Positions 2,249-58,890 of a stretch of 58,942 bases of DNA are shown one piece after another. The notes beneath the pieces are model-generated. The model did no database searches. It was not told the DNA's origin and saw only the letters and a program-made list of their open reading frames with translations. The number at the start of each line of letters is the position of its first letter. The first letter of the stretch is position 1. A program made the position numbers and the translations under genes. Origin of the DNA: a virus (taxonomy: Duplodnaviria; Caudoviricetes); IMG/VR virus record IMGVR_UViG_3300033143_005711, positions 1 to 58,942 of that record. One strand, written 5' to 3'.

Positions 2249-3109
2249 TTAAATTTTACTAATCCTCTTTTTATACAATAATGCTGCTTTTTTTCCAATA
2301 CATTGTATTGATTCCTTTGATGATTTTATTTCTCCTTTTGATTCTCTCATAACATCTTCAATCATTGCTTTAATTACTTCCCTAGTTTTTTCTATTTCAG
2401 TAGGATTTCCAAGTTTATCTAAAACATGTGTAAGCCTCATAGGTGTTACCCATTCTTCTGCAATAGCTTTGGCATCTTCCAAAATCTTTAATTGTTCTGG
2501 ATTAACTTCTCTTTTTGTTTTAGTTTCTTTAAAAGAATCTCCCTTATGTTTTACAATTAATCTTTTTCCATTATTTTTAATAAGTTCCATTAAAGGTCTT
2601 AAAACTACACCTTCTCTCAATTTCCCTTCACCACAACCATTTCTTATCGCTTGTGTTGATTGTAAATCTCTTTGTTTATCTATTTCTTTTAAATCTGTTG
2701 TTATCTTTACATAATCTACAAATTCCAAACCAAGTTTCTTAGTAACATCTTCTGCATTTGGAATATCCAACCAATTACCATCTACTTTTACATCAAATAC
2801 AACAAACTTTAATTCTTTACCATAAGTTTCAGACATGCCCTGACATTTTCCACCATATGCTTCTCCAAAAACAACAACATTACCTTCAAATAATTCTGTA
2901 AATGTCTTTTCCAAATAATCTACATCAAATATTTTTTCAAACCTATTATGTTTTTCACCACCTGGAGATAAAGTTAATTTTCCATTCTTCCAACTAATAT
3001 TAGCTGATGTTCCATGAATCTTTTCCATAGCATAGCATTCTTTAAATAAAAGTATTTCAGTATTTTTATATAAATTATCTATATGTAAATATCCCATTAT
3101 TTTTTCCAC
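2249..3109 (-). CDS. ATP-dependent RNA ligase (Rnl2-like)
   Basis: nucleotidyltransferase motifs I EKIHGT, III FGE, IIIa FDV, IV EGVV, V KHK. Confidence 0.85.
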   Translation of the reverse strand: MEKIMGYLHIDNLYKNTEILLFKECYAMEKIHGTSANISWKNGKLTLSPGGEKHNRFEKIFDVDYLEKTFTELFEGNVVVFGEAYGGKCQGMSETYGKELKFVVFDVKVDGNWLDIPNAEDVTKKLGLEFVDYVKITTDLKEIDKQRDLQSTQAIRNGCGEGKLREGVVLRPLMELIKNNGKRLIVKHKGDSFKETKTKREVNPEQLKILEDAKAIAEEWVTPMRLTHVLDKLGNPTEIEKTREVIKAMIEDVMRESKGEIKSSKESIQCIGKKAALLYKKRISKI

Positions 3110-3934: not shown

Positions 3935-3949
3935 CCCTTTTAAATGTTT
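3935..3949 (-). promoter_or_regulatory. archaeal BRE/TATA promoter, leaderless transcript
   Basis: AAACATTTAAAAGGG about 25 bp upstream of ATG 3915; the same motif recurs genome-wide. Confidence 0.7.
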
Positions 3950-4271: not shown

Positions 4272-4868
4272 TTACTTTTTTTTAACTATTTTAAGATTAT
4301 CTTTCTTTGTGTCAAAATCAGATAAATACGGCACACCTATTTTACTATAATGTTGTCCATCAAACATAATTGCTTCATCCTTTTTTAAGTTTAGAATGTT
4401 TGTTCCCCTCTCATCCCCTTTATATTCAAGTATTATCCTTTTAACACTACTACCATTAATGAAATCTGCAAATGTTACTTTTTTATAAATTATTATATTA
4501 ATCTTACTTGAGATAAATTTCTTCAGGTTTTCAGGCACAGCAGATATGACCAATATATTATTATTATGATTGATAAGTCTTAGTGTCCTTTCTATTTGTT
4601 TTTTAGCTACACGATTATCCAAATCCCATAAAGACATAACTTCATCAAGAAAAATAATACTATCTTTAATTCCTTCTAATTCACTAACACTATTTATGTT
4701 TGTTGCATTTTCAATTTCCATCTTTAATCCAAATGTATAAAGATTGTATTTAAATTTTTTATCTAATTCTTTAATAAGGTAATATACTAAATTACTTTTA
4801 CCTTCATTTATATCTGAAACGATAGCTATTATACATGGCTTTGAGAATAAATCTACTATGTTATTCAT
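4272..4868 (-). CDS. P-loop NTPase (start refined to MNNIVDLF)
   Basis: Walker A SDINEGKS, Walker B IIFLDE; GGAGG SD. Confidence 0.75.
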   Translation of the reverse strand: MNNIVDLFSKPCIIAIVSDINEGKSNLVYYLIKELDKKFKYNLYTFGLKMEIENATNINSVSELEGIKDSIIFLDEVMSLWDLDNRVAKKQIERTLRLINHNNNILVISAVPENLKKFISSKINIIIYKKVTFADFINGSSVKRIILEYKGDERGTNILNLKKDEAIMFDGQHYSKIGVPYLSDFDTKKDNLKIVKKK

Positions 4869-5586
4869 ATTTCCCTCCTTTAACAAGATTTTCTCTCCAC
4901 CATAAAGGTTGAAGATTTGTATAATGAAATAACTTATATACTTCCTCTTCTGTTTTAGCTGAGCAAATAGGAATGATATGGTCAATGTGCCAACCAAACC
5001 TCCCATAGTTTTCCCAAGTCATCCCTTCTTTAAATAAACTTTCTAAGTATTCCCTAAGTTCTTCCACACTGCATCCCAAAATTTCTTTAAAATACTTTGT
5101 CTTTTTCATGTGTCCTTTTTTCAAATATCTTCTTAAATAAGTAGAAATATTTTTTCTTAACCTATATCTAAAATCTTCTTTTTCTTTAATTAATCTTTTT
5201 TTCATAAGAGATTTCTTATTCTTTTGAAAATATACTCTCATTCTTTTTCTTTCTAATTCCTTAGAACATTTTTCACAATATTTTCTTTTATGTGATTTTG
5301 GTGTTATTGTTAACTTTCTTTGACATAAGCCACAATTTATAATTAATAGTTTAGGAAGATAAGGTTGCTTATTTTTATGGTAATTTAATCTTTTGAATTT
5401 ATTTCTTCTCTTTCTTTGGATAGGAGTTATATTCTTCTGATATTCTTTAACTATCTCAGAGCAACATTGTTTACATTTGTAAATATACTTACCAGACATA
5501 AAATTTGTTAATGGTTTTTGTAGTTTACAAGTTTTACAAAGTAAAAATTCTCTTCCTTGTTCCTTTAATTTTAATCTATTAGCCAT
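4861..5586 (-). CDS. HNH homing-type endonuclease with Zn fingers (start refined to MANRLK)
   Basis: WENYG-x-x-GWHIDHIIP...FHYTNLQPLW-x-x-EN; CxxC pairs; own TATA box. Confidence 0.85.
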   Translation of the reverse strand: MANRLKLKEQGREFLLCKTCKLQKPLTNFMSGKYIYKCKQCCSEIVKEYQKNITPIQRKRRNKFKRLNYHKNKQPYLPKLLIINCGLCQRKLTITPKSHKRKYCEKCSKELERKRMRVYFQKNKKSLMKKRLIKEKEDFRYRLRKNISTYLRRYLKKGHMKKTKYFKEILGCSVEELREYLESLFKEGMTWENYGRFGWHIDHIIPICSAKTEEEVYKLFHYTNLQPLWWRENLVKGGKYE

Positions 5587-5684
5587 ATTATAAATAAAGA
5601 TACAATGATATAAAAAGTTTTCTACTCCAAAAGCTTTTGGTTTATCAAATATTGTTATCATTTTTTGTTTTAACACTCAATTTT

Positions 5685-6607: not shown

Positions 6608-7357
6608 CTACCATTTTACTTCTCCTAAAACTTTACATTTTTTAACTCTAATCTTTCCCATTTGACAAGTAATTACATCTTTTAATTGGACTTCACAAGC
6701 AATTAAAGTATCTCCTTTATCCCAATAAAAGGGGGTAGATAAATGAATACCTTTTCCACAAGATTTATTTGATTTATCGTAATCTTTAACTTTAATCTCT
6801 TTTCCATCTTCATAAATAAATTCTTTATCATAACAACTTGAATATTTACCTCTAGATATTTGATTTACTCTTTTATACATTACAAAATTATCATTAGGAA
6901 TTATTCCTATTTGACTTGCTATCTGTTTTTTTATGTTATCTAGCTTTTTATTTATATATCCGGTTAAAATTAAATTTTCTCCATATACCCTAGCATCTCC
7001 ATATACCATAGCATCTCCAGATACCCTAGCATCTCCAGATACCCTAGCATCTCCAGATACCCTAGCATCTCCAGATACCATAGCATCTCCAGATACCCTA
7101 GCATCTCCATATACCATAGCATCTCCAGATACCCTAGCATCTCCATATACCATAGCATCTCCAGATACCATAGCATCTCCATATACCATAGCATCTCCAG
7201 ATACCATAGCATCTCCATTTTGACTTAAATTACTTTCTTTTTCTATCCAACCCCCTAATTCTCCTTTTTTAACACTTCCAAATTTCTCAATACATTCAAT
7301 TTGATAAAGTGTTCTTCCAAATATTTCTTTTTTGTTTTTTGTTAATTTATATTTCAT
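6608..7357 (-). CDS. hexapeptide-repeat (GDAxVx) beta-helix protein
   Basis: GELGGWIEKESNLSQ followed by 13 GDA(M/R)V(S/Y) repeats; C-terminal CGKGIH domain. Confidence 0.8.
   Translation of the reverse strand: MKYKLTKNKKEIFGRTLYQIECIEKFGSVKKGELGGWIEKESNLSQNGDAMVSGDAMVYGDAMVSGDAMVYGDARVSGDAMVYGDARVSGDAMVSGDARVSGDARVSGDARVSGDAMVYGDARVYGENLILTGYINKKLDNIKKQIASQIGIIPNDNFVMYKRVNQISRGKYSSCYDKEFIYEDGKEIKVKDYDKSNKSCGKGIHLSTPFYWDKGDTLIACEVQLKDVITCQMGKIRVKKCKVLGEVKW
6984..7217. repeat. 18-bp tandem repeat x13
   Basis: (g/t)atacc(a/c)tagcatctcca units. Confidence 0.9.
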
Positions 7358-8192: not shown

Positions 8193-8755
8193 TTTGTAAT
8201 TTTTTTATAATTTCTTCCCTTATATTTTCTCTGCGTAATATTAATATTCCCATTCTTTTCTCACTTCCATAATCTTTTTCAAAATCTATCTGTGCTTCAA
8301 CACTTTTAAGTTTTCTTTTTAATCTCCATTGTGGAAGTTTTTTCATTTTAATTATTTAAGTTGTTTACTTTATTTTCTAAATCAAAAAGATATTTTATTA
8401 CTTCGTCTATACTTTTAAAATCCTTTTCAATTTTTTTAAGCATTAACTTTTTATGTGTATTAAAATTAACGATTAAAGTTTTTTGTTGTTCTTTTTCTTC
8501 TTCCATTTTATTTTTTTAACTCCATTTTGAATATTTTTATGTTTTTTTCTCTGTGTATGTTTTTTTCTTTTTTCTCTAAACTCTTTAGGTGTTTAATTCT
8601 TCTTTGTAATTCTGCTTTACTCAACTTCTTTAATTCCATTTTTCACCCCTAAAATCTTCTTACTTAAATAAGAAAATCTTTTTAATTCCTCTTTTGTCAA
8701 TTCCCTTATATGACTTAAACTTCTCAATGCCTCAAATTCTCTTCTTTTTTTCATT

Positions 8756-9337
8756 TTAAAAATAAAACCTGTAATTTTCTTGGTTCTTTTCCCCTCTTAA
8801 TTTATTTAATACTAATTGGCTACAAATAGAAGCAACTATCAGGTTTCCATTTTGAATAATGTTGTTTTCTAACTCGTAACTTAATTGACAAGACATAGAT
8901 TTTTTATTTTTCAAATCAATAGTTCTTAAAATATCTTCTTTTTTCATTTTGTCTGTTTTAGTAAAGATAGCAATAGCTCTACTTTCAGCTCTTAAATCAA
9001 TAAAATATTTATTTTCTTTGAAACAATAATCTATTATTAGTTTTCTTGCCTTTGCATTATCAACGCAGGAAATTATAAAATTATATTCTTTGAGTTGTTC
9101 CTCGCTGGTTATTGCTTTCTCAATACAATTAAGGCAATACTTACTGCTTACGTCAGTTGTGAAGTTTTGGTATTTTATATTTTTTAACTCTACTTTGTCA
9201 AAATCTGCTAGAGTTATTTCAACTTGACTTAAATCAATCTGTTCATTTAAGATTAATCTGTTAAGTTCTCTTGCTAAATACGAACCAATACCACCACAAC
9301 CAACAACCAATATTTTATTTTCCATTTTATAAGTCAT
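8756..9337 (-). CDS. ThiF/MoeB/E1-like adenylating enzyme (compact, no CxxC Zn sites)
   Basis: ILVVGCGGIGS; DFDKVELKNIKYQ; SCVDNAKAR; candidate catalytic Cys in SMSCQL. Confidence 0.9.
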   Translation of the reverse strand: MTYKMENKILVVGCGGIGSYLARELNRLILNEQIDLSQVEITLADFDKVELKNIKYQNFTTDVSSKYCLNCIEKAITSEEQLKEYNFIISCVDNAKARKLIIDYCFKENKYFIDLRAESRAIAIFTKTDKMKKEDILRTIDLKNKKSMSCQLSYELENNIIQNGNLIVASICSQLVLNKLRGEKNQENYRFYF

Positions 9338-9565: not shown

Positions 9566-9781
9566 TTATCCTCCAAGTAAACCATTAACTAAAACGATTT
9601 CGTCTGCATTTGCTATATCGTTTTCTGTTAAAGTGTCAGAAGATTTAAAGTTTCCGTCCACATAACACCACTTTCCATTTTCGCTTGTTTCTTGTCTAAT
9701 TCTATCTAAAGCTAAAGACGGAACAAGTTTTAAAGTGTCATGTCCTCTCTCTGAAACCACTTTTAAAGTTATTTCTTTCAT
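9566..9781 (-). CDS. ubiquitin-like (beta-grasp, ThiS/SAMP-like) protein ending in Gly-Gly
   Basis: 71 aa, ends DEIVLVNGLLGG-stop; YVDG strand; strong AAGGAGG SD; two genes upstream of E1. Confidence 0.8.
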   Translation of the reverse strand: MKEITLKVVSERGHDTLKLVPSLALDRIRQETSENGKWCYVDGNFKSSDTLTENDIANADEIVLVNGLLGG

Positions 9782-14246: not shown

Positions 14247-14441
14247 TGTTTATAAATGTTTGTGTTATTTGTATTTCTTATAAAACTACAATACTACATA
14301 ATAGTTACAACAAAAAAAGAATTCTTGTTTCACGGAGGAGTGGTGAATTTTGTTAATAGTCATCTCATTTATGTAATTAGGGAAGATGCGAGGTAGTGTC
14401 ATTTATAAATGATTACATATAAAACGAAACATTTAAAAGGG
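14247..14441. promoter_or_regulatory. divergent promoter region at the strand switch
   Basis: AAACATTTATAAAC (minus, about 14247-14262) and AAACATTTAAAAGGG (plus, about 14427-14441); clustered ACTAC motifs. Confidence 0.65.
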
Positions 14442-46441: not shown

Positions 46442-46699
46442 TCATTTTATGAATTTCCCTTGTTTATTTCTTTTTCTATTTGAAATTTTAGGTAGGGTTT
46501 TTTTTATTTGTTTATACCACTCTTTTCCCCTGTGCTGTTTTGAATGGCAACTTCTACACAAAATTAATAAGTTAGATATTTGATTATTTTTTCTATTTTC
46601 ATCAATGTGATGAATTTGTAAGTCTTTTTTATTCCCACATAACTTACAACTTTCCCCTTGTTTCAATTCCTTAAACCAATTATCTAATTTTGTTGCCAT
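46442..46699 (-). CDS. HNH endonuclease
   Basis: CKLC...IHHIDENRKNNQISNLLILCRSCH. Confidence 0.85.
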   Translation of the reverse strand: MATKLDNWFKELKQGESCKLCGNKKDLQIHHIDENRKNNQISNLLILCRSCHSKQHRGKEWYKQIKKTLPKISNRKRNKQGKFIK

Positions 46700-47210
46700 A
46701 TTTCTCCTCAAAATCTTCATATTTAATTTTTATTTTATTCTTTTCTTTGTACTTAGATGCTACCAATATCTTTGAGAACACCTTGTTTTGTAACAACCAA
46801 AAGCATTTCTCTTTTTCTTCTTTATCTAAGTATCCATTTGATTTTGATTCAACACCAATTATGCACGATAGTCTAATATGTTTAAATTCAATATTTCCAG
46901 GGTTAATTGTATCTTTATCAAAAATTAAATCACGCCATTGGCTTGTGTCATGCCCAAAAGCAATAAAGTCTGGAAATCCTGTTCCTATAGCCATCGGTAT
47001 TCCTGTCCCTCTAAATTTATGTTTAGCAGGTATCAATTCTGCTCCAGATGTTTCTTCACCATTTGATTGGTCAATCCAAAATCTAATATTATTCATCCAT
47101 TTAGAAACAATCCAACCTTTAGACTCTAAGTCTTTTCTCACTTTAAGTTCAAATCTAGCTCCTGCTGCTTTTGACTTCTTTCCCATTGCTACTTTTTTTG
47201 GGTCTTTCAT
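46680..47210 (-). CDS. hjc: archaeal-type Holliday junction resolvase (Hjc-like)
   Basis: GARFE-x-x-V-x-x-x-LE-x-x-GW, GFPDFIA, GVESK. Confidence 0.7.
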   Translation of the reverse strand: MKDPKKVAMGKKSKAAGARFELKVRKDLESKGWIVSKWMNNIRFWIDQSNGEETSGAELIPAKHKFRGTGIPMAIGTGFPDFIAFGHDTSQWRDLIFDKDTINPGNIEFKHIRLSCIIGVESKSNGYLDKEEKEKCFWLLQNKVFSKILVASKYKEKNKIKIKYEDFEEKYGNKIR

Positions 47211-51018: not shown

Positions 51019-51090
51019 AGCTCCCGTAGAGACTTGCACTCTACTCTCCGGTTTACAAGACCGGTACATCGCTATCTATGCTTCGGAAGC
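51019..51090 (-). tRNA. tRNA-Thr(UGU)
   Basis: cloverleaf; anticodon arm CCGGU-CUUGUAA-ACCGG. Confidence 0.85.
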
Positions 51091-51092
51091 AA

Positions 51093-51166
51093 TAGCCCTA
51101 CTCGGATTCGAACCGAGGTCTCCAGTGTCAAAGACTGGTATTCTTGTCCAGCTAAACTATAGGGCT
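51093..51166 (-). tRNA. tRNA-Gln(UUG)
   Basis: A1-U72 archaeal type; loop CUUUGAC. Confidence 0.9.
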
Positions 51167-51169
51167 TTA

Positions 51170-51241
51170 TATCTCCAGCAGGAATTGAACCTACATCTCA
51201 AGGGTCGAAGCCTAGTATTCTATCTGTTGAACTATGGAGAT
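51170..51241 (-). tRNA. tRNA-Arg(UCG)
   Basis: loop CUUCGAC; GUUCAAUU T-loop. Confidence 0.85.
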
Positions 51242-51245
51242 TTGA

Positions 51246-51317
51246 TGGTTCATGAAAGAATTGAACTTTCTTCTCCCGAGCTTCAGTCAGGTGTAATACC
51301 CAATATACGAATGAACC
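51246..51317 (-). tRNA. tRNA-Phe(GAA)
   Basis: loop CUGAAGC. Confidence 0.85.
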
Positions 51318-51320
51318 AAA

Positions 51321-51393
51321 TGACCCTAGGGGGATTTGAACCCCCATGTACCGGTTAAAAGCCGGTTACTCTACCAGATTGAGCTATAGAGCC
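51321..51393 (-). tRNA. tRNA-Lys(UUU)
   Basis: ACCGG-CUUUUAA-CCGGU. Confidence 0.9.
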
Positions 51394-51394
51394 T

Positions 51395-51469
51395 TGGTGG
51401 GCCCAGCCGGAATCCAACCGACGTCTAGGGATTAGAAGTCCCTTATTCTATGCCCTGAACTATGGGCCC
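51395..51469 (-). tRNA. tRNA-Arg(UCU), CCA encoded
   Basis: AGGGA-CUUCUAA-UCCCU; atypical T-loop UUGGAUU. Confidence 0.85.
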
Positions 51470-51472
51470 AAA

Positions 51473-51545
51473 CGTATCCGGTTGGATTTGAACCAACGAC
51501 CTTCCGGTTAACAGCCGGATGCTACCACCACTGAGCTACGGACAC
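51473..51545 (-). tRNA. tRNA-Asn(GUU)
   Basis: UCCGG-CUGUUAA-CCGGA; G73. Confidence 0.9.
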
Positions 51546-51548
51546 ATA

Positions 51549-51619
51549 AGACTTTGCCGTGAATCGAACACGGGTCAAAAGGGTTGCAATCTTTTGGGAT
51601 ACCACTACCTCACAAAGTC
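51549..51619 (-). tRNA. tRNA-Cys(GCA)
   Basis: loop UUGCAAC; U73. Confidence 0.9.
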
Positions 51620-51621
51620 AA

Positions 51622-51705
51622 TGGGAGTAGGGGGAATCGAACCCACCACAGCACACTAAGGCTCCAATCTTAAGTCGGATGTATTTTCCAATTTACTATA
51701 CTCCC
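51622..51705 (-). tRNA. tRNA-Leu(UAA)
   Basis: loop CUUAAGA; long variable arm. Confidence 0.9.
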
Positions 51706-51708
51706 TTA

Positions 51709-51790
51709 TGGGCGAACTTGGATTCGAACCAAGACAGACACTAAGCCACGAGTTCTAAGCCCGTTGCGTTTTCCAATTCGCTATACGCCC
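51709..51790 (-). tRNA. tRNA-Leu(UAG)
   Basis: loop CUUAGAA; long variable arm. Confidence 0.9.
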
Positions 51791-51791
51791 T

Positions 51792-51865
51792 TGGTCTCCC
51801 TTGTCCGAGTTGCACGAACCTCCTACGGTTTACAGCCGTTTGTCGCACTCCGCGACTTAAGAGAG
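51792..51865 (-). tRNA. tRNA-Tyr(GUA), archaeal type, CCA encoded
   Basis: C1-G72, short variable loop, loop CUGUAAA. Confidence 0.8.
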
Positions 51866-51868
51866 TTA

Positions 51869-51941
51869 TGACCCCACCCAGATTTGAACTGGGATGTTCT
51901 GGTTAAGAGCCAGATACTCTGCCAAGTTGAGCTATGGAGCC
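51869..51941 (-). tRNA. tRNA-Lys(CUU)
   Basis: UCUGG-CUCUUAA-CCAGA. Confidence 0.9.
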
Positions 51942-51943
51942 AA

Positions 51944-52014
51944 TGAGAGAACTAGGATTCGCACCTAGACCTAATGGGTTGGAGCCATTTATGCTGCTAT
52001 TACACCAAACTCTC
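51944..52014 (-). tRNA. tRNA-Trp(CCA), intronless
   Basis: AAUGG-CUCCAAC-CCAUU; two U-U mismatches in the acceptor stem. Confidence 0.8.
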
Positions 52015-52017
52015 AAA

Positions 52018-52090
52018 TTGGTTCGAGGGGATTTTAACCCCTGGTCTCCCGCATATAAGACGGGTGCATTAAACACTATGCTACGAACCA
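52018..52090 (-). tRNA. tRNA-Ile(UAU)
   Basis: CCCGU-CUUAUAU-GCGGG. Confidence 0.85.
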
Positions 52091-52091
52091 C

Positions 52092-52165
52092 TGGTAGGCC
52101 CAGAGAGAATCGAACTCCCGTTGCTGGCATATCAGGCCAGTAGTCTACCATTAACTTATGAGCCT
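52092..52165 (-). tRNA. tRNA-Ile(GAU), CCA encoded
   Basis: CUGGC-CUGAUAU-GCCAG. Confidence 0.9.
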
Positions 52166-52168
52166 TTA

Positions 52169-52243
52169 CGCCCCCTACGGGATTTGAACCCGTGTCTTCA
52201 GGTTGAAAACCTGACATACTTGGCCGGACTATACGAAGGGGGC
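52169..52243 (-). tRNA. tRNA-Glu(UUC)
   Basis: UCAGG-UUUUCAA-CCUGA. Confidence 0.9.
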
Positions 52244-52247
52244 AAAG

Positions 52248-52320
52248 GATGAATGGAGAGACTTGAACTCTCTTCTCCTGGACCACAGCCAGGCACATTA
52301 CCACATATGCTACACCCATC
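52248..52320 (-). tRNA. tRNA-His(GUG) with encoded G-1:C73
   Basis: CCUGG-CUGUGGU-CCAGG. Confidence 0.9.
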
Positions 52321-52362
52321 ATTAAGTACATCCTCCCTAGAATCTTATCTAGGAAATCATCA

Positions 52363-52445
52363 CGCCGACAGCTGGAGTCGAACCAACTCACCTAAAGGTG
52401 ACCTCAGCTTAGCAAGCTGGTGCATTACCGTTCTGCCATATCGGC
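52363..52445 (-). tRNA. tRNA-Ser(GCU)
   Basis: loop UUGCUAA; long variable arm; G73. Confidence 0.9.
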
Positions 52446-52448
52446 TTA

Positions 52449-52528
52449 CGCCGTCGAGAGGAATCGAACCTCCATACACTAAGGAAATTGGGTTCAAGCC
52501 AATCGGGCTACCACTGCCCAACGACGGC
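52449..52528 (-). tRNA. tRNA-Ser(UGA)
   Basis: AUUGG-CUUGAAC-CCAAU; extended variable region; G73. Confidence 0.85.
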
Positions 52529-52530
52529 AA

Positions 52531-52601
52531 CGCCCAGTGCGGGAATCGGACCCGCGCTTGATGGCTGACAACCATCTGTACTACCATTATACTAACTGGG
52601 C
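52531..52601 (-). tRNA. tRNA-Asp(GUC)
   Basis: GAUGG-UUGUCAG-CCAUC; G73. Confidence 0.85.
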
Positions 52602-52603
52602 AA

Positions 52604-52674
52604 TGGATGAACCTGGAATCGAACCAGGACCTTCTCGATGTAAGCGAGATATTCTACCACTAGACTATACATCC
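52604..52674 (-). tRNA. tRNA-Val(UAC)
   Basis: UCUCG-CUUACAU-CGAGA. Confidence 0.9.
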
Positions 52675-52677
52675 AAA

Positions 52678-52748
52678 TGGACCAACCGAGAATCGAACTC
52701 AGACCTCTTCGTTGCAAACGAAGTATACTACCATTGTACTATTAGCCC
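52678..52748 (-). tRNA. tRNA-Ala(UGC)
   Basis: G3:U70; loop UUUGCAA. Confidence 0.9.
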
Positions 52749-52749
52749 C

Positions 52750-52826
52750 TGGTGGGGTATCTTGGATTTGAACCAAGATTATACGGTTCCAAACCGCAGG
52801 TGTTACCAACTTATCACTAATACCCC
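52750..52826 (-). tRNA. tRNA-Pro(UGG), CCA encoded
   Basis: GGGG start (archaeal type); loop UUUGGAA. Confidence 0.9.
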
Positions 52827-52829
52827 ATA

Positions 52830-52900
52830 TGCGCTAACTCGTACTTAAACCGAGACAAATAGTTTGGAAGACTATTATGCTATCATTACATCATTAACGC
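52830..52900 (-). tRNA. tRNA-Gly(UCC)
   Basis: GCG/CGC acceptor, A73; loop CUUCCAA; degenerate T-arm. Confidence 0.8.
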
Positions 52901-53220
52901 GTTTTATTATGTTCCTTTCGATGGCAATTTGAGCAAAGCACAACACATTTTGAAATCTCTTCTAGGATTTTCTTTATTGAGTACCCATGCGTGGCCATTA
53001 TAGAAATCTCGTTTTCCTTATTTGATTCTTTATGGTGAAACTCTAAACAAGCAGGATGTTTTTCAGGGCATCTATCACATTTAAGTTTCTTTTTGTAATT
53101 AAAATACCAAGCTTTTATCCTTGCCCTATGTTCTATTGTTCGTCTCCTTTCAGAATCCTTATTTTTTTGATACCATTTCCTTCTAAACTCTCTCCGTTTT
53201 TCTACATCTTTATATGGCAT
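52894..53220 (-). CDS. HNH endonuclease in the tRNA array (start refined to MPYKD)
   Basis: CDRC...LEFHH...KCVVLCSNCH; own TATA at about 53241-53254. Confidence 0.85.
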   Translation of the reverse strand: MPYKDVEKRREFRRKWYQKNKDSERRRTIEHRARIKAWYFNYKKKLKCDRCPEKHPACLEFHHKESNKENEISIMATHGYSIKKILEEISKCVVLCSNCHRKEHNKTR

Positions 53221-53266
53221 GTTTCTATTAAGGATACATACTTTAAAAAGGTTTGTAAACCACATA

Positions 53267-53337
53267 TAGCAGTATCCTGAATCGAACAGGAATTTTGAGA
53301 GCATGAGTCTCATAGGTTACCTTTACCTCATACTGCT
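53267..53337 (-). tRNA. tRNA-Met(CAU), A1-U72
   Basis: UGAGA-CUCAUGC-UCUCA; initiator or elongator identity unclear. Confidence 0.8.
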
Positions 53338-53630
53338 TTACTTGTTTCCTTAAAATGTATCCAATTATGGCAATTTGCACAAAGCAAATCACATTTATTT
53401 ATCTCATCAATAATTGTTTGTTTTTTATAATTTCCTAAGTTACCAACACTAAATTTGAATCTTTTATCTTTTGGATTTCTATGGTGGAATTGAAGTATTT
53501 CAAAATGTTCATCATAACCACATTTCTGACATTTATTTATCTTCTTTTTTATACTAAAGATAAATTTCCTATATTCATCTCTTCTATTTGTTTGCCACCT
53601 ATAAAAATCTTTTATATCTTTATATGCCAT
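53328..53630 (-). CDS. HNH endonuclease in the tRNA array
   Basis: CQKC...LQFHH...KCDLLCANCH; own TATA AAAGCTTATAAA. Confidence 0.85.
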   Translation of the reverse strand: MAYKDIKDFYRWQTNRRDEYRKFIFSIKKKINKCQKCGYDEHFEILQFHHRNPKDKRFKFSVGNLGNYKKQTIIDEINKCDLLCANCHNWIHFKETSKAV

Positions 53631-53824: not shown

Positions 53825-53921
53825 GAAAGAGATTGATTTGTGCCTTTTTAAATGTTTTGGAGTTACCACTAAGTGTTAAAAAAAATAAAAATAAAAAAAA
53901 ATAAAAAAAAATAAACTAAGT

Positions 53922-55343
53922 TTATATTAAACTGAAGGAACCTTCAAGTTTTTCTTCTGGTACAGTGATAGAATACTCGTTGTCTTCTGCAGAATCTTCT
54001 GGGTTTACTATACTTATTCCGAATTCAGATAAGTGAGTTTCGTCGTCTGTTAAGACTACTCCATTCGCTTTTGAAACATTCAAGTCATAGTTAACTCTAA
54101 AGTCTTCAATAACAATCCAGCTTGCTTTTCTTTCAAGAACTAATCCTGAGTCTTCTAATTCAACTTCATCTGAGTCGATTAAAACTAAATCTCTGTCATA
54201 GATACCTGTAGCATTTATGTAAACTCTACTATAGTCTTCAAGTCCACTTAAGAAATTTCCATCTGTTCTAACATACCAGTTACCATCTAATTCATCTAAT
54301 CTGAAAGAAACTTCTTCAGCATCATCTTCAGATATTCCGTTGAACTTAATACATACATAGTCGTTTGGTAAACAAAGTGATTCATCAACTCCAATTGCTT
54401 GGAATTCTTTATCTCCATCAGCATCAACTTCATCAAAGTCTTCTGCTAATATAATACCAAGAGAATTTGCTCCAATTACCCAATTCCATGGACTATCTTC
54501 TGCATATTCATCTCCATCGAATACTTCATTTTCAATATCTTCTGCTACGATTATCTTAGCTTTTCCAGTTACGAAATCGCTAGTTTCATACGCATACTCA
54601 AGTTTAACTTGTATTCCATTGATTGTTTTAACTTCTCCTTCATCTAGTTCTTTTGTATCTTCTCCTACACTAATTAATGCTTCATCATCACCAACTAATA
54701 TCAAGGTGATTTCTTTGTCATCAAAAGTTATAGATTCTCCTTCAGAAAGAACATGTGAAACTCCTTGGAAAAATTTAACAGAATCTACATTCCATTCTGA
54801 AACTTCTAATTCATTTCCTAAGAACTCAAAACTAAGTGAATCTTCTTCAGAAATTAAGCTTGTATTTAAATCACTATCAAAACTCATTTTATATTCAACT
54901 GCTTCCTTTGGAACGTTCATATAAACTTTTTCTTCATAGTCATGTTCATTTGCTAATAAAACAATATCTTTTAATACAAATGTTTCTTCTGCATCATATT
55001 CGTTGTTTCCAAAATCAATTTCTCCATCAAATAAATTTAATTCTCTATCCGAATAAATATCTTGAACAAATGGAACTCCTAAGAATAATTCATCAACTAG
55101 AAATCCTAAACTTATTACTTCTTCTTCAGCATTAATTATTTCTTGAGCTTCATAATTAGCAATAGCATTAGCAACTGCTAAATCAATTGAATATTGTACT
55201 TGTGTTTCATTCATTAAACCTTCCGGAATATTGTCTGGACCAAAAGCAGCCATAGCGGCAAAGATAAGAACTAATACTGCGACTACACCTATAAACCAGG
55301 TGAAGCCTTTACTCATTCTAACACTTTTTTTTGCTTGTGTCAT
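53922..55343 (-). CDS. acidic S-layer-like protein
   Basis: N-terminal TM, very Asp/Glu-rich, FEFLGNELEV, LSEGESIT, ELDEGEVKTINGIQV; GGAGGT SD; T-rich terminator. Confidence 0.7.
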   Translation of the reverse strand: MTQAKKSVRMSKGFTWFIGVVAVLVLIFAAMAAFGPDNIPEGLMNETQVQYSIDLAVANAIANYEAQEIINAEEEVISLGFLVDELFLGVPFVQDIYSDRELNLFDGEIDFGNNEYDAEETFVLKDIVLLANEHDYEEKVYMNVPKEAVEYKMSFDSDLNTSLISEEDSLSFEFLGNELEVSEWNVDSVKFFQGVSHVLSEGESITFDDKEITLILVGDDEALISVGEDTKELDEGEVKTINGIQVKLEYAYETSDFVTGKAKIIVAEDIENEVFDGDEYAEDSPWNWVIGANSLGIILAEDFDEVDADGDKEFQAIGVDESLCLPNDYVCIKFNGISEDDAEEVSFRLDELDGNWYVRTDGNFLSGLEDYSRVYINATGIYDRDLVLIDSDEVELEDSGLVLERKASWIVIEDFRVNYDLNVSKANGVVLTDDETHLSEFGISIVNPEDSAEDNEYSITVPEEKLEGSFSLI

Positions 55344-56376
55344 ATTTTTTTATACCTCCTTCTAACTCTATAGAAAAAGAACTATGTGAGTACTTTAAGG
55401 TACTTTTATCTATCATTTTAATAGTAAATGCATTAGTTAACTTAGTATTTAAATGTTTCTAATTCTATTTTTCGTATAATATCTTTGGCTAAAACTACTT
55501 CCCTAGAACCAAATTTATATTTTAAAAACAAATCAGATGCTTTGACACCATCGGCTAGTAACAACACTATTTCAAGCACCTCTACCACTTTTTTTTTCAT
55601 TTTATTTAATTAAGGAATAAGAGAACCCCTACTCAGCAGGGGTTTCTACGGGAACTTCTTCTGGTGCTTTTTCTTCAACTGTTTCTTCTTCTACAGTTTC
55701 AGTTTTATTTTCTTCATCCATTTTTATTACCTCCATAATTTACTTTGGTGAACATTAGAAATTTCTTTTCATCTTTGGTTTAATTTTTATGTCCTTTGGC
55801 TTAACTACTGCTTTACAATCTTTACAATACATAGTAGGTGAAGATTTTCTTCCAAAAGGAAAATTCTTTTTAACTCTTTTATGTGAACAATTACGCATCT
55901 TTATTTACCTTATGATTTAATGTTTGTTCTTTTCCAGATACTTCTAATTCAAAGTCTTGAAGATTCTCATTGAACCATCTTTTTAATCTAACAAAGATTA
56001 ATTCTTCTGATTCTTCTGTATTTATTTTTCCACTAAATGTTATTATCATTTTTTATTCATTAGCAAAAGCTTTCCCCATATTTTTTTCAATTTGAAATAT
56101 AAGATAAAGAACAATAAATACATCAATTAGAATACCCCACCAAGTAAGATTTGACACACTATAAAAAATCATAAATATTAAAAAAATAATACAAACTATC
56201 GCCCAACCTAATGGTTTTCCGTTTATTTTCATTCTAATAACTCCAGAGTATTTGGTATGTCTATTCCTTTTTTTATTCTTTCAAGATTATCTGTTTTTAG
56301 CTTTCTAAAGCATCTCCAACAAACATTATGTGTTCTTATTATAGCTGTGGCTTTTGAACCACAATTACAAGTTTCA

Positions 56377-56867: not shown

Positions 56868-57281
56868 TTATTCATTTTTGGGTATACACTTTTTTTTCAA
56901 TTTAATTTTATCTTCATTAGTGTCTTTATTCCCATTTATATCAACTTTTAATTTATCCATTAAGTATACTATTCCGTTAAGATTAAAAGCTATTGCTGCT
57001 GCATGGTCTTCATCTGTTTCTCCACCCATTAATTGAAAAGTATGTCTTAAAAAACTAGCTTTGAATCTATTTAACTCTTCTACCGAATTAGCTTTCTCCC
57101 AATTTCTTTCTGAATATTTAACTGCACCTCTATCCATTAACATAGACCACCTGCATAATAAAGTTTGTTCATATTTTTGTGATTCTGGTATTAATAAATC
57201 AAATCTAGGTTTATTTTCTTGTGGTTCTCTTTCCATACCAGATTTGAAATTCTTTCTTTTTCCACCGTCTTTTGTTATCAT
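56868..57281 (-). CDS. dATP/dGTP diphosphohydrolase-like (DUF5664/MazG-like) protein
   Basis: KPRFDLL, GAVKYSERNWEK, RH, EDHAAAIAFN. Confidence 0.8.
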   Translation of the reverse strand: MITKDGGKRKNFKSGMEREPQENKPRFDLLIPESQKYEQTLLCRWSMLMDRGAVKYSERNWEKANSVEELNRFKASFLRHTFQLMGGETDEDHAAAIAFNLNGIVYLMDKLKVDINGNKDTNEDKIKLKKKCIPKNE

Positions 57282-57411
57282 TTTTTCTCCTCCCATTCAC
57301 ACCTACAACTATGACAAAAATATTTATTATTTATTTTTGACTCACTTGACATTTGTGTGGTGTTATAACATTTACAGTGTGGACATTGTTTGTTTCCTTT
57401 TCTTGTTATTT

Positions 57412-58242: not shown

Positions 58243-58466
58243 TGTACCAACCCATTAACAAAAGCCTGTAATCTTTTACAAATATTTGTTTTACATAATT
58301 TATCTGCTTCACATTTACAATATAGACCTTCATAACCCAAAACCAATAAACATCTTTCAGTATTACATTTTTTACAAGTATTTGCTTCTTTAACAATATC
58401 CATTGCTTCTATAATATCTTTTAGTGTTAGTTTGCTCATTTTATTTTCCTCACAAATCCACTCCAA
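58239..58466 (-). CDS. small Cys-rich protein (likely start MSKLTL)
   Basis: CKKC, CKC and further Cys. Confidence 0.55.
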   Translation of the reverse strand: MEWICEENKMSKLTLKDIIEAMDIVKEANTCKKCNTERCLLVLGYEGLYCKCEADKLCKTNICKRLQAFVNGLVQ

Positions 58467-58890
58467 GTTTTAACTCTATGAATATATTTTTGAAAATAAC
58501 TTGCTTTTGCTTCTGTTGTCCAAGGTGCTTGAAATGAACTCATATCTCTATTATAGGGCGCATCAAATATAAAAATGTTACTCCTTCTTTTTCCATGAAG
58601 TGCAATATCTTTTGCATTATCTAAATTATCTTCAATAAAATAATCAATTCCAAGTAGTTTTGCTAATTTTCCTTTTTCTTTTGTAAAGCTTAAAGTATCA
58701 TATTCAATACCATGTTTATTTAGCCAATAAGGTGTGAAATCTCTAGCTTTATCATCACGATAAGTAATAATATGTATTGAATGTCCTTTTTCTTTTAATT
58801 GTTGAAGTCCAGAAATAGCACCAACAATAGGCCTAAGTGATTTGAATGTATTGTCATTCCATTGTTCTTTAACAATTTGCCAAACCAAAT
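58436..58890 (-). CDS. C-terminal part of HAD 5'(3')-deoxyribonucleotidase (start at 142 across the join)
   Basis: PIVGA, IITYR, FIEDN, APYN motifs of the NT5C family. Confidence 0.85.

Follow-up and report, generated by a model that had tools for sequence, protein, structure and literature searches.

A near-minimal array of 25 transfer RNA genes with one U34 tRNA per four-codon box in the genome of a probable archaeal tailed virus

We analysed a window of 58942 bases that makes up the whole of IMG/VR record IMGVR_UViG_3300033143_005711, a virus of the Caudoviricetes, and found that it carries a dense array of 25 transfer RNA (tRNA) genes at 51019-53337 on the minus strand. The array covers all 20 amino acids and serves each of the eight four-codon boxes with one tRNA that has uridine at the wobble position (U34). 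We read this as a real array of 25 genes, probably functional and probably transcribed as one unit, in a tailed virus whose host is most likely an archaeon, and we propose that it makes the translation of viral genes largely independent of the host tRNA pool. We put the probability of this reading as a whole at about 0.55; function and joint transcription are judged from the sequence.

To call tRNA genes, we ran ARAGORN (at its default and at the lowered thresholds -ps80 and -ps85) and the Rfam model RF00005 (gathering cut-off 29 bits) over all 58942 bases. Default ARAGORN found 22 genes, which all lie within 51093-53337 on the minus strand. Rfam at its gathering score found 24, scoring 46.3-67.8 bits, and so added Thr-UGU (51019-51090) and Gly-UCC (52830-52900) to the default ARAGORN set; 24 of the 25 array genes thus beat the cut-off by at least 17 bits. 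Outside the array, neither default ARAGORN nor Rfam RF00005 found any tRNA in the 58942 bases. At -ps80, ARAGORN made 28 calls, of which we discarded a Pro-CGG within Ser-GCU and two plus-strand calls because they were spurious overlaps, leaving 25. The weakest of these is Tyr-GUA, which was called by ARAGORN at -ps80 and -ps85 only. It fits exactly into the 77-base gap between Lys-CUU and Leu-UAG, and its minimum-energy structure, predicted without constraints, is a cloverleaf whose acceptor stem has 7 bp; the energy z-score is just -1.32, which is not unusual. The array is made up of 25 tRNA genes with this one weak member, the count given in a preliminary description of the sequence. The genes, in the direction of the array, are as follows.

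53267-53337, minus: tRNA-Met (CAU); default ARAGORN, Rfam 58.1 bits
52830-52900, minus: tRNA-Gly (UCC); Rfam 49.1 bits, ARAGORN at lowered threshold only
52750-52826, minus: tRNA-Pro (UGG), CCA encoded; ARAGORN, Rfam
52678-52748, minus: tRNA-Ala (UGC), G3:U70; ARAGORN, Rfam
52604-52674, minus: tRNA-Val (UAC); ARAGORN, Rfam
52531-52601, minus: tRNA-Asp (GUC); ARAGORN, Rfam
52449-52528, minus: tRNA-Ser (UGA), long variable arm; ARAGORN, Rfam
52363-52445, minus: tRNA-Ser (GCU), long variable arm; ARAGORN, Rfam
52248-52319, minus: tRNA-His (GUG), G-1 encoded at 52320 opposite C73; ARAGORN, Rfam
52169-52243, minus: tRNA-Glu (UUC); ARAGORN, Rfam
52092-52165, minus: tRNA-Ile (GAU), CCA encoded; ARAGORN, Rfam
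52018-52090, minus: tRNA-Ile (UAU), AUA decoder; ARAGORN, Rfam 67.1 bits
51944-52014, minus: tRNA-Trp (CCA); ARAGORN, Rfam
51869-51941, minus: tRNA-Lys (CUU), sole redundant member; ARAGORN, Rfam
51792-51865, minus: tRNA-Tyr (GUA), class I, C1-G72, A73, CCA encoded; ARAGORN at -ps80 and -ps85 only
51709-51790, minus: tRNA-Leu (UAG), long variable arm; ARAGORN, Rfam
51622-51705, minus: tRNA-Leu (UAA), long variable arm; ARAGORN, Rfam
51549-51619, minus: tRNA-Cys (GCA); ARAGORN, Rfam
51473-51545, minus: tRNA-Asn (GUU); ARAGORN, Rfam
51395-51469, minus: tRNA-Arg (UCU), CCA encoded; ARAGORN, Rfam
51321-51393, minus: tRNA-Lys (UUU); ARAGORN, Rfam 67.8 bits
51246-51317, minus: tRNA-Phe (GAA), G37; ARAGORN, Rfam
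51170-51241, minus: tRNA-Arg (UCG); ARAGORN, Rfam
51093-51166, minus: tRNA-Gln (UUG); ARAGORN, Rfam
51019-51090, minus: tRNA-Thr (UGU), the final gene, with T-runs after it; Rfam 46.3 bits, ARAGORN at lowered threshold

The genes are packed at 10.8 per kb (25 genes in 2319 bases), or 12.8 per kb for 24 genes in 1882 bases. They are 71-84 nt long, none of the 25 has an intron, and four of them (Pro, Ile-GAU, Tyr and Arg-UCU) carry an encoded CCA. By Rfam coordinates, the spacers measure 2-4 nt at 22 of the 24 junctions, so the intronless, tightly spaced layout that had been described holds in each of its parts. The two longer junctions are 43 nt between Ser-GCU and His, and 366 nt between Met and Gly, where a gene for an HNH endonuclease lies. 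The 43-nt spacer (52320-52362, minus), the sole long non-coding gap within the tRNA run, has an inverted repeat, CCUAGA...UCUAGG.

In the ARAGORN drawings, U33 is present in 25 of 25 tRNAs, and each tRNA has 18-23 paired stem positions with zero mismatches among the drawn pairs. The G+C content of the array is 47.7% against 30.0% for the genome, as expected if selection keeps the stems. Identity elements are in place for Ala (G3:U70), His (an encoded G-1 opposite C73) and Tyr (C1-G72). The lone CAU tRNA has A1-U72, G37 and the anticodon stem UGAGA/UCUCA, with no run of three G-C pairs; instead of an initiator and an elongator, the array thus has a single CAU tRNA without a G-C-rich anticodon stem and no recognisable initiator. 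A37 is usual in tRNAs that read ANN codons. We note that G37 is also found in a deviant CAU tRNA of an unrelated-looking viral array (record G037, locus L091, 1026-1113), and that both Met tRNAs of a Nanoarchaeota genome (G171) have A37.

We next considered what this set can decode. The anticodons bear out the claim of one U34 tRNA per four-codon box (UAG, UAC, UGA, UGG, UGU, UGC, UCG and UCC), and no G34, C34 or A34 partner for any of these boxes is present in the window. The thirteen two-codon families and Trp have one tRNA apiece, and every split box is covered; beyond those, the array holds Ile-GAU and Ile-UAU, Lys-UUU and Lys-CUU, and the single CAU tRNA. Lys-CUU and Ile-UAU had been counted as the extras. 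This is right for Lys-CUU and wrong for Ile-UAU, because AUA makes up 589 of the 1354 viral Ile codons (44%) and cannot be read by GAU; Ile-UAU is therefore a required decoder, and Lys-CUU is the sole redundancy. Similarly, the set is complete in boxes and isotypes but falls short of full completeness for want of a recognisable initiator. The near-minimal design of one tRNA per box is supported, as is the contrast with archaea, which normally use many more tRNAs: the Nanoarchaeota genome, of a phylum with relatives of the viral capsid gene among its metagenome assemblies, has 46 tRNA matches, with G34, U34 and C34 in every four-codon box. When 25 anticodons are drawn at random from 46 archaeal anticodon classes, all 24 decoding units are covered with P = 6.7e-7 under this crude null.

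Viral codon use was counted over 16657 codons in 93 open reading frames (ORFs) chosen by strand and length, which are crude gene calls. Codons ending in A or U dominate (GAA is 88% of Glu, AAA 81% of Lys and AGA 70% of Arg codons). Under ordinary wobble (A and G read by U34, U and C by G34), 45 of the 61 sense codons and 83.8% of occurrences are within reach of the set. Set against codon use, then, the U34 design accounts for most viral codons by ordinary wobble, and coverage becomes full only when U34 is assumed to read four ways (61 of 61 sense codons and all 16657 occurrences).

These numbers bear on the foremost alternative, that the tRNAs compensate for codon bias by boosting the supply for frequent A-ending and split-box codons while host G34 tRNAs read NNU and NNC, so that completeness is a by-product. 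Such compensation is the classical explanation for phage tRNAs in the portions cited of two studies (PMC6409571; PMC13532342), and it fits both the codon preference of a 30% G+C virus and the 83.8% already read by ordinary wobble. It accounts poorly for the tRNAs that are retained for very rare codons: the CGN box holds 52 of 16657 codons (0.3%), yet Arg-UCG is kept, and so is Leu-UAG, with CUA and CUG together at 113 codons. Nor does it account for the choice of wobble base, as G34 would read more codons than the present U34 in four of the eight boxes (CUN 74%, GUN 56%, UCN 53% and CGN 63%), and a set that covers each box with a single redundancy would be very unlikely to arise by chance. To keep a tRNA for a barely used box, and the broadest wobble base where a narrower one fits better, suggests that selection has favoured independence of the host pool. 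Completeness, rather than supply for a few abundant codons, seems to have been under selection, and the pattern of codons and boxes favours a complete one-per-box set over the matching of abundant codons; we consider compensation as the whole explanation unlikely, at perhaps one chance in four.

The same pattern is expected if U34 reads broadly, without proving that it does. The preliminary description had gone further, to a superwobble set with which the virus could replace the host pool wholesale, for example after tRNA destruction by host or virus. Read strictly, the eight U34 tRNAs would be unmodified, or modified in a way that lets them read all four codons of their boxes, and the 25 tRNAs would take the place of the host pool once a host defence nuclease or the virus had destroyed it. 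Four-way reading and wholesale replacement are hypotheses, and we think the combination somewhat less probable than codon compensation. In its favour, four-way reading would leave no sense codon unread, and no four-codon box has a G34 or C34 tRNA here or in two related arrays. In the passages cited of one study, a UAU tRNA-Ile is described as replacing the modified CAU form in Mycoplasma mobile and a few archaea (PMC3575796); on that account, Ile-UAU spares the need for the host agmatidine enzyme. For bacteria, phage tRNAs have been proposed to counter tRNA-targeting defences, in the part cited of a further study (PMC10264068). The window also encodes an RNA ligase.

2249-3109, minus: Rnl2-family RNA ligase; Pfam PF09414 2.8e-13, PHROG 548 2.4e-28

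This ligase further matched NCBIfam Rnl2 (1e-13, below the cut-off) and, weakly, T4 Rnl2 in the PDB (1.6e-4), and although encoded far from the array it is a possible tRNA-repair partner. We scanned 47 ORFs, about half of those in the window, against Pfam, PHROGs or NCBIfam, and found no polynucleotide kinase/phosphatase among them; of the phage tRNA-repair module of the T4 type (Rnl plus Pnkp), the ligase is thus present and its kinase/phosphatase partner was not found in that half. Among the same 47, no tRNA-targeting nuclease and no tRNA enzyme other than the ligase were recognised; many ORFs of the window have no annotation. Replacement would, moreover, leave the virus without a recognisable initiator tRNA and still in need of host synthetases, RNase P, RNase Z and the CCA enzyme. 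Topping up and replacing the host pool are both compatible with the array.

We then considered the genome that carries the array. The first 52 bases of the window repeat at its end as a terminal repeat, and the large terminase, portal, major capsid and tail proteins were identified by PHROG matches. The window holds the genome of a tailed virus in full, and the earlier view of a virus replicon of about 59 kb stands. The capsid family is labelled N4-gp56 by our sources. Genes point leftward at 1-13.5 kb and 45.5-58.9 kb and rightward in the region enclosed by these two blocks. The array shares the second of the leftward blocks with nucleotide-metabolism genes.

Several lines of evidence point to an archaeal host. 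A scan with the capsid profile over one genome per prokaryotic species gave seven loci, all seven in archaeal metagenome-assembled genomes (MAGs): Nanoarchaeia, Woesearchaeota, Aenigmatarchaeota, two labelled Methanosarcinales, Thermococci and one labelled only 'archaeon'. A further capsid homologue is labelled Pacearchaeota. Bacterial tRNA-Tyr has a long variable arm and G1-C72, whereas a short variable loop with C1-G72 is the archaeal and eukaryal form. The tRNA-Tyr of the window is class I with a 4-nt variable loop and C1-G72, and class I tRNA-Tyr with C1-G72 is also found in all three other viral arrays described below and in the 0.97-Mb Nanoarchaeota genome. The anticodon loop of tRNA-Phe is CUGAAGC, with G37; G37 is the archaeal and eukaryal form, and the bacterial form has A37. 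The S-layer-like protein encoded beside the array, described below, points the same way. Around the array, sigma-70-like sites number 9 where 11.0 are expected and so are not enriched, and the coding strand was found to hold no intrinsic terminator. Shine-Dalgarno-like motifs precede 25-33 of 92 genes, a real enrichment that we rejected as a marker of domain since it is common to bacteria and many archaea. The archaeal setting assumed earlier is thus upheld, and we regard an archaeal host as very probable; for a DPANN host we see near even odds.

To learn whether arrays of this kind recur, we took 80 IMG/VR records with a related capsid and scanned 50, and then the remaining 30, with the tRNA model. 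At least one tRNA was present in 22 of the 80 (16 of 50 and 6 of 30), and in five of the seven records that are at least 90% complete. In six records, the array either numbered 18 tRNAs or more or was truncated by the contig end. As three of these are identical over the array, four distinct viruses remain: G010, with just 4 tRNAs ending at the contig end, and three with at least 18.

G047: 61193 bases, complete, capsid 49% identical; 28 Rfam matches, 29 genes with low-threshold ARAGORN
G037, G038 and G277: identical over the array and counted as one virus; 23 tRNAs, including the deviant CAU tRNA, which was read by eye
G284: 45.8 kb, partial; 21 tRNAs, four-codon boxes mixed, G34 present

In G047, each four-codon box has one U34 or A34 tRNA (Thr has both), with no G34 or C34. 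In the virus represented by G037, the seven four-codon boxes recovered are all U34, with Leu-CUN alone missing. Ile-UAU is present in all four arrays, that of the window included. Large arrays recur in this assemblage of viruses, and their identities are compatible with descent and with repeated assembly. The A34 tRNAs of G047 (Thr-AGU, Arg-ACG, Leu-AAG and Ser-AGA; locus L090, C1:44500-56500) stand beside an archaeal-type tRNA-Tyr; to our knowledge, archaea neither use A34 tRNAs nor have an inosine-making deaminase. In G012/G013 and in G037 (L091, 1419-1569), some tRNAs are 111-151 nt long, and ARAGORN calls a 61-nt intron in the Leu-UAA of G037; intron-bearing viral tRNAs would need the host splicing endonuclease.

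The best relative that we found is a metagenome contig of 59461 bases, SDBT01000551.1, with a capsid 80% identical and 69-82% DNA identity over the structural genes; no tRNA was found in the stretch around its capsid gene. Exact-match scans of IMG/VR with an 18-mer of tRNA-Tyr and a 17-mer of tRNA-Ile-UAU gave no match, and a scan with the 473-aa protein encoded next to the array gave no relative there.

Several observations weigh against our reading. Tyr-GUA has no match to the Rfam model even at E <= 10 and is absent from the default ARAGORN calls. The D-loop GG is missing in five tRNAs (Gly, Trp, Arg-UCG, Thr and Ile-UAU), and the T-loop is non-canonical in seven, with the Trp, Tyr and Thr versions beginning UGC; some tRNAs with weak D- or T-loops may work poorly. 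The capsid evidence for the host is indirect, as it rests on viral contigs binned into MAGs. When the array was compared as DNA with 201 genomes of the phylum Nanoarchaeota (two candidates scored per genome), 144 matched, with best identities of 74-85% over the length of a tRNA, and no host could be assigned; some short T-arm matches reached 94-97%. The closest IMG/VR relative (capsid 70% identical, 61% complete) has zero tRNAs in its recovered part, and tRNAs with the same anticodon are about 55-74% identical across the viral arrays, no closer than unrelated tRNA pairs.

The weak loops raise the question of whether the array is a selfish or hitch-hiking cassette, moved by HNH endonucleases or captured whole from a cellular or mobile tRNA cluster, that brings little benefit and has several decaying members. 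Three HNH endonuclease genes were found, two of them in the array.

52894-53220, minus: HNH endonuclease gene between tRNA-Met and tRNA-Gly; PHROG HNH families E 7e-22
53328-53630, minus: HNH endonuclease gene; Pfam HNH E 0.0013 (below cut-off), paralogy E 3e-14
46442-46720, minus: third HNH endonuclease; Pfam 5.4e-7

The first two are paralogues, 35% identical, and are interlocked with the tRNAs: the stop codon of the first overlaps the first bases of tRNA-Gly, and the TAA stop of the second overlaps the first two bases of tRNA-Met (53337). A cassette of this kind would also fit the patchy presence of arrays among relatives, the missing D-loop GG and the poor score of Tyr, and archaeal mobile-element tRNA clusters are reported to have many pseudogene calls in the part cited of a survey (PMC6333295). 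Decay is hard to square with the G+C-rich, intact stems, with the intact elements of Ala, His and Tyr, and with a set that has no duplicate anticodon and no missing box. Among the T-loops in question are UUUAAGU (Gly), UGCGAAU (Trp), UGCAACU (Tyr) and UGCAAGU (Thr), and the form UGCAAYU is also found in the tRNA-Tyr of an otherwise dissimilar viral array, which suggests constraint rather than decay. We therefore regard a purely selfish cassette as improbable.

Least probable is a bacterial host, for example an ultra-small bacterium of the candidate phyla radiation, or a tRNA block joined in assembly from an organelle or other genome: the widespread N4-gp56 capsid type, the Shine-Dalgarno-like motifs (which many archaea have too) and AT-rich tRNAs with weak elbows that recall organelle tRNAs are outweighed by a tRNA-Tyr without a long variable arm and with C1-G72 (a general rule with which one archaeal genome agrees), by capsid matches to archaeal genomes in seven of seven cases, by related complete viral records that carry arrays of their own, and by a strand and HNH paralogues that are continuous with the flanking viral genes.

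Returning to an array that works in an archaeal cell, we propose the following course. A single transcript would start upstream of 53630, and the long precursor would be cut by host RNase P and RNase Z. A host enzyme would add CCA to the 21 genes without an encoded CCA, and host synthetases would charge the viral tRNAs, whose identity elements are archaeal in style. With one broad-reading tRNA per codon box, the A/U-rich viral genes could then be translated largely independently of the host pool, and the homing endonuclease genes of the HNH type in the array would probably aid its spread and persistence. A candidate start for the transcript was found by reading the sequence.

53844-53856, minus: AACATTTAAAAAG, candidate promoter resembling a B recognition element and TATA box (BRE/TATA), upstream of the array

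A T-rich tract of about 40 nt (about 53875-53918) ends the gene that precedes the array, and AACATTTAAAAAG comes after it. Taking AACATTTAAAAAG as a BRE/TATA-like promoter, and the T-runs after tRNA-Thr as the end of the array, is suggestive only. A second motif, the 13-mer AACATTTAAAAGG, which may be a promoter of the BRE/TATA type, occurs twice in exact form, at 3936-3948 (minus) and 14428-14440 (plus), 21 and 37 nt upstream of gene starts. With up to three mismatches it is not enriched in the window (94 copies against 92.5 expected); with up to two, 15 of 15 copies are oriented as the local genes, which strand composition could explain.

Directly upstream of the array, a 473-aa protein (53922-55343, minus) is conserved in the virus group, with 88 homologues besides itself. 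We considered it as a tRNA enzyme and rejected this in favour of a beta-rich protein resembling those of the archaeal surface layer (S-layer): three of the 88 homologues carry the archaeal S-layer Pfam domain PF05124, and the predicted structure (mean predicted local distance difference test score, pLDDT, 84.4) has two N-terminal helices followed by beta-rich domains. In the PDB, this structure comes closest to the S-layer DUF1608 domain of Methanosarcina acetivorans (E 8.6e-6), at a template-modelling score (TM-score) of just 0.22-0.31.

Elsewhere in the genome, a 71-aa protein that ends in ...LLGG (9566-9781, minus) has a ubiquitin-like look and is encoded two genes upstream of a 193-aa E1-like protein of the ThiF/MoeB family (8756-9337, minus; Pfam ThiF 2e-17), whose best NCBIfam match, the PRTRC ThiF family, is below the cut-off. 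In the atlas, the nearest clusters consist of viral hypothetical proteins; a cluster of the ThiS family comes up only at 0.82. Archaeal ubiquitin-like/E1 pairs also supply sulfur for the 2-thiolation of U34, and a link between this pair and the tRNA set is conceivable. Two genes encode the N-terminal domain of a dATP/dGTP diphosphohydrolase (56868-57296, minus; MazZ-like, 8.6e-11) and an NT5C-type 5' deoxynucleotidase (58436-58888, minus; 2.8e-9); no PurZ-like gene and no evidence of a modified-base pathway were found among the ORFs scanned. We also observed an endonuclease VII-like protein (4861-5676, minus; PHROG 3.6e-15), a YdcK beta-solenoid repeat protein (6608-7357, minus; 5.2e-20) and two AT-rich stretches without a coding-strand ORF of at least 60 aa (8193-8755, 22.7% G+C; 55344-56376, 27.4% G+C).

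Why viruses carry tRNAs is debated, the main ideas being that the tRNAs match codon use, let the virus survive a loss of host tRNAs or help it escape defences that cut tRNAs, and for archaeal viruses almost nothing is known of the reasons. Large tRNA sets of viruses are for the most part redundant and come from genomes of more than 100 kb, so that the signal is blurred; the set of the window has neither duplicates nor gaps, and it makes a clean prediction, that U34 reads all four codons in an archaeal cell. That the design recurs in relatives, one of them with an A34 solution, suggests that the habit is more widespread in this group of viruses and has so far gone undescribed. A bolder version, to which we give little credence, is that a lineage of small archaeal tailed viruses, possibly of DPANN hosts, has an organelle-like, self-sufficient elongator set with a four-way reader per box (U34 in the window, U34 or A34 in a relative), so that viral proteins can still be made once the host tRNA pool is removed or disabled. 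Were this bolder version true, the array would be the first minimal decoding system known from a virus, and the tRNA pool itself would be contested between archaeal viruses and their hosts.

The design resembles the sets of mitochondria, plastids and Mollicutes, which likewise have one U34 tRNA per four-codon box, AT-rich tRNAs and some weakened contacts between D-loop and T-loop. In those systems the set is the sole pool of its compartment and U34 is known to be unmodified, whereas the virus coexists with the host pool unless that pool is destroyed; the resemblance is one of design, not descent.

Among viruses, the array has the features of a tRNA cluster as defined by Morgado and Vicente (at least 15 tRNAs at a minimum of 2 per kb in a virus genome). 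The portion cited of their survey lists 228 genomes with clusters of 15-37 tRNAs, at a median genome size of 148 kb and densities of about 2-10 per kb; eight of the 228 clusters hold all 20 isotypes, and one archaeal virus is included (PMC6409571). Its phage clusters (T5, mycobacteriophages, vibriophages and others) belong for the most part to tailed viruses that are virulent, and they often contain homing endonucleases (PMC6409571), as the array of the window does. The set of the window differs in its smaller size, higher density and lack of duplicates. HGTV-1 (Hagravirus capitaneum), which infects an archaeon and has a genome of 143.9 kb, is credited in the section cited with 34-36 tRNAs, pseudogenes included, a number given as the record for archaeal viruses, and with two Rnl2 ligases (PMC8651126); in the cited part of a 2026 re-analysis, no tRNA-His was found (PMC13532342). 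It is like the window in being an archaeal member of the Caudoviricetes with tRNAs for nearly all amino acids and Rnl2-family ligases, and unlike it in being redundant and GC-rich, with a CCA enzyme, a lysyl-tRNA synthetase (LysRS) and RtcB, where the window has 25 non-redundant tRNAs in 58.9 kb and U34 alone in four-codon boxes. DNTV-1, a tailed virus of Nanohaloarchaeota (DPANN), has a genome of 103.4 kb with 29 tRNAs, which serve 19 amino acids, and with two Rnl2 ligases of the T4-like type, according to the portion cited of a preprint (bioRxiv 10.1101/2025.02.15.638363); with five tRNAs for Asp and Glu there, its set is enriched and not minimal. As far as these sources go, both viruses pair many tRNAs with Rnl2 ligases, as the window does. 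Clusters in archaeal genomes (haloarchaea and Methanobrevibacter), in the part cited of the survey that covers them, have 10-29 genes at up to 9.17 per kb, with HNH genes and mobile elements nearby; most are redundant with the host set, many members are pseudogene calls, one cluster has all 20 isotypes and none there is from DPANN (PMC6333295). On that account, they share with the window archaeal-type tRNAs, high density and HNH genes nearby. In the literature searched, which left the supplementary tRNA tables of HGTV-1 and DNTV-1 outside, we found no account of a viral set that is non-redundant with U34 alone, or that works by superwobble, and the window has the smallest and densest complete-isotype tRNA set that we could find for a putative archaeal virus. 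The viral tRNA cluster is a known kind; what stands out here is the small genome, the density, the lack of redundancy and the U34-only design.

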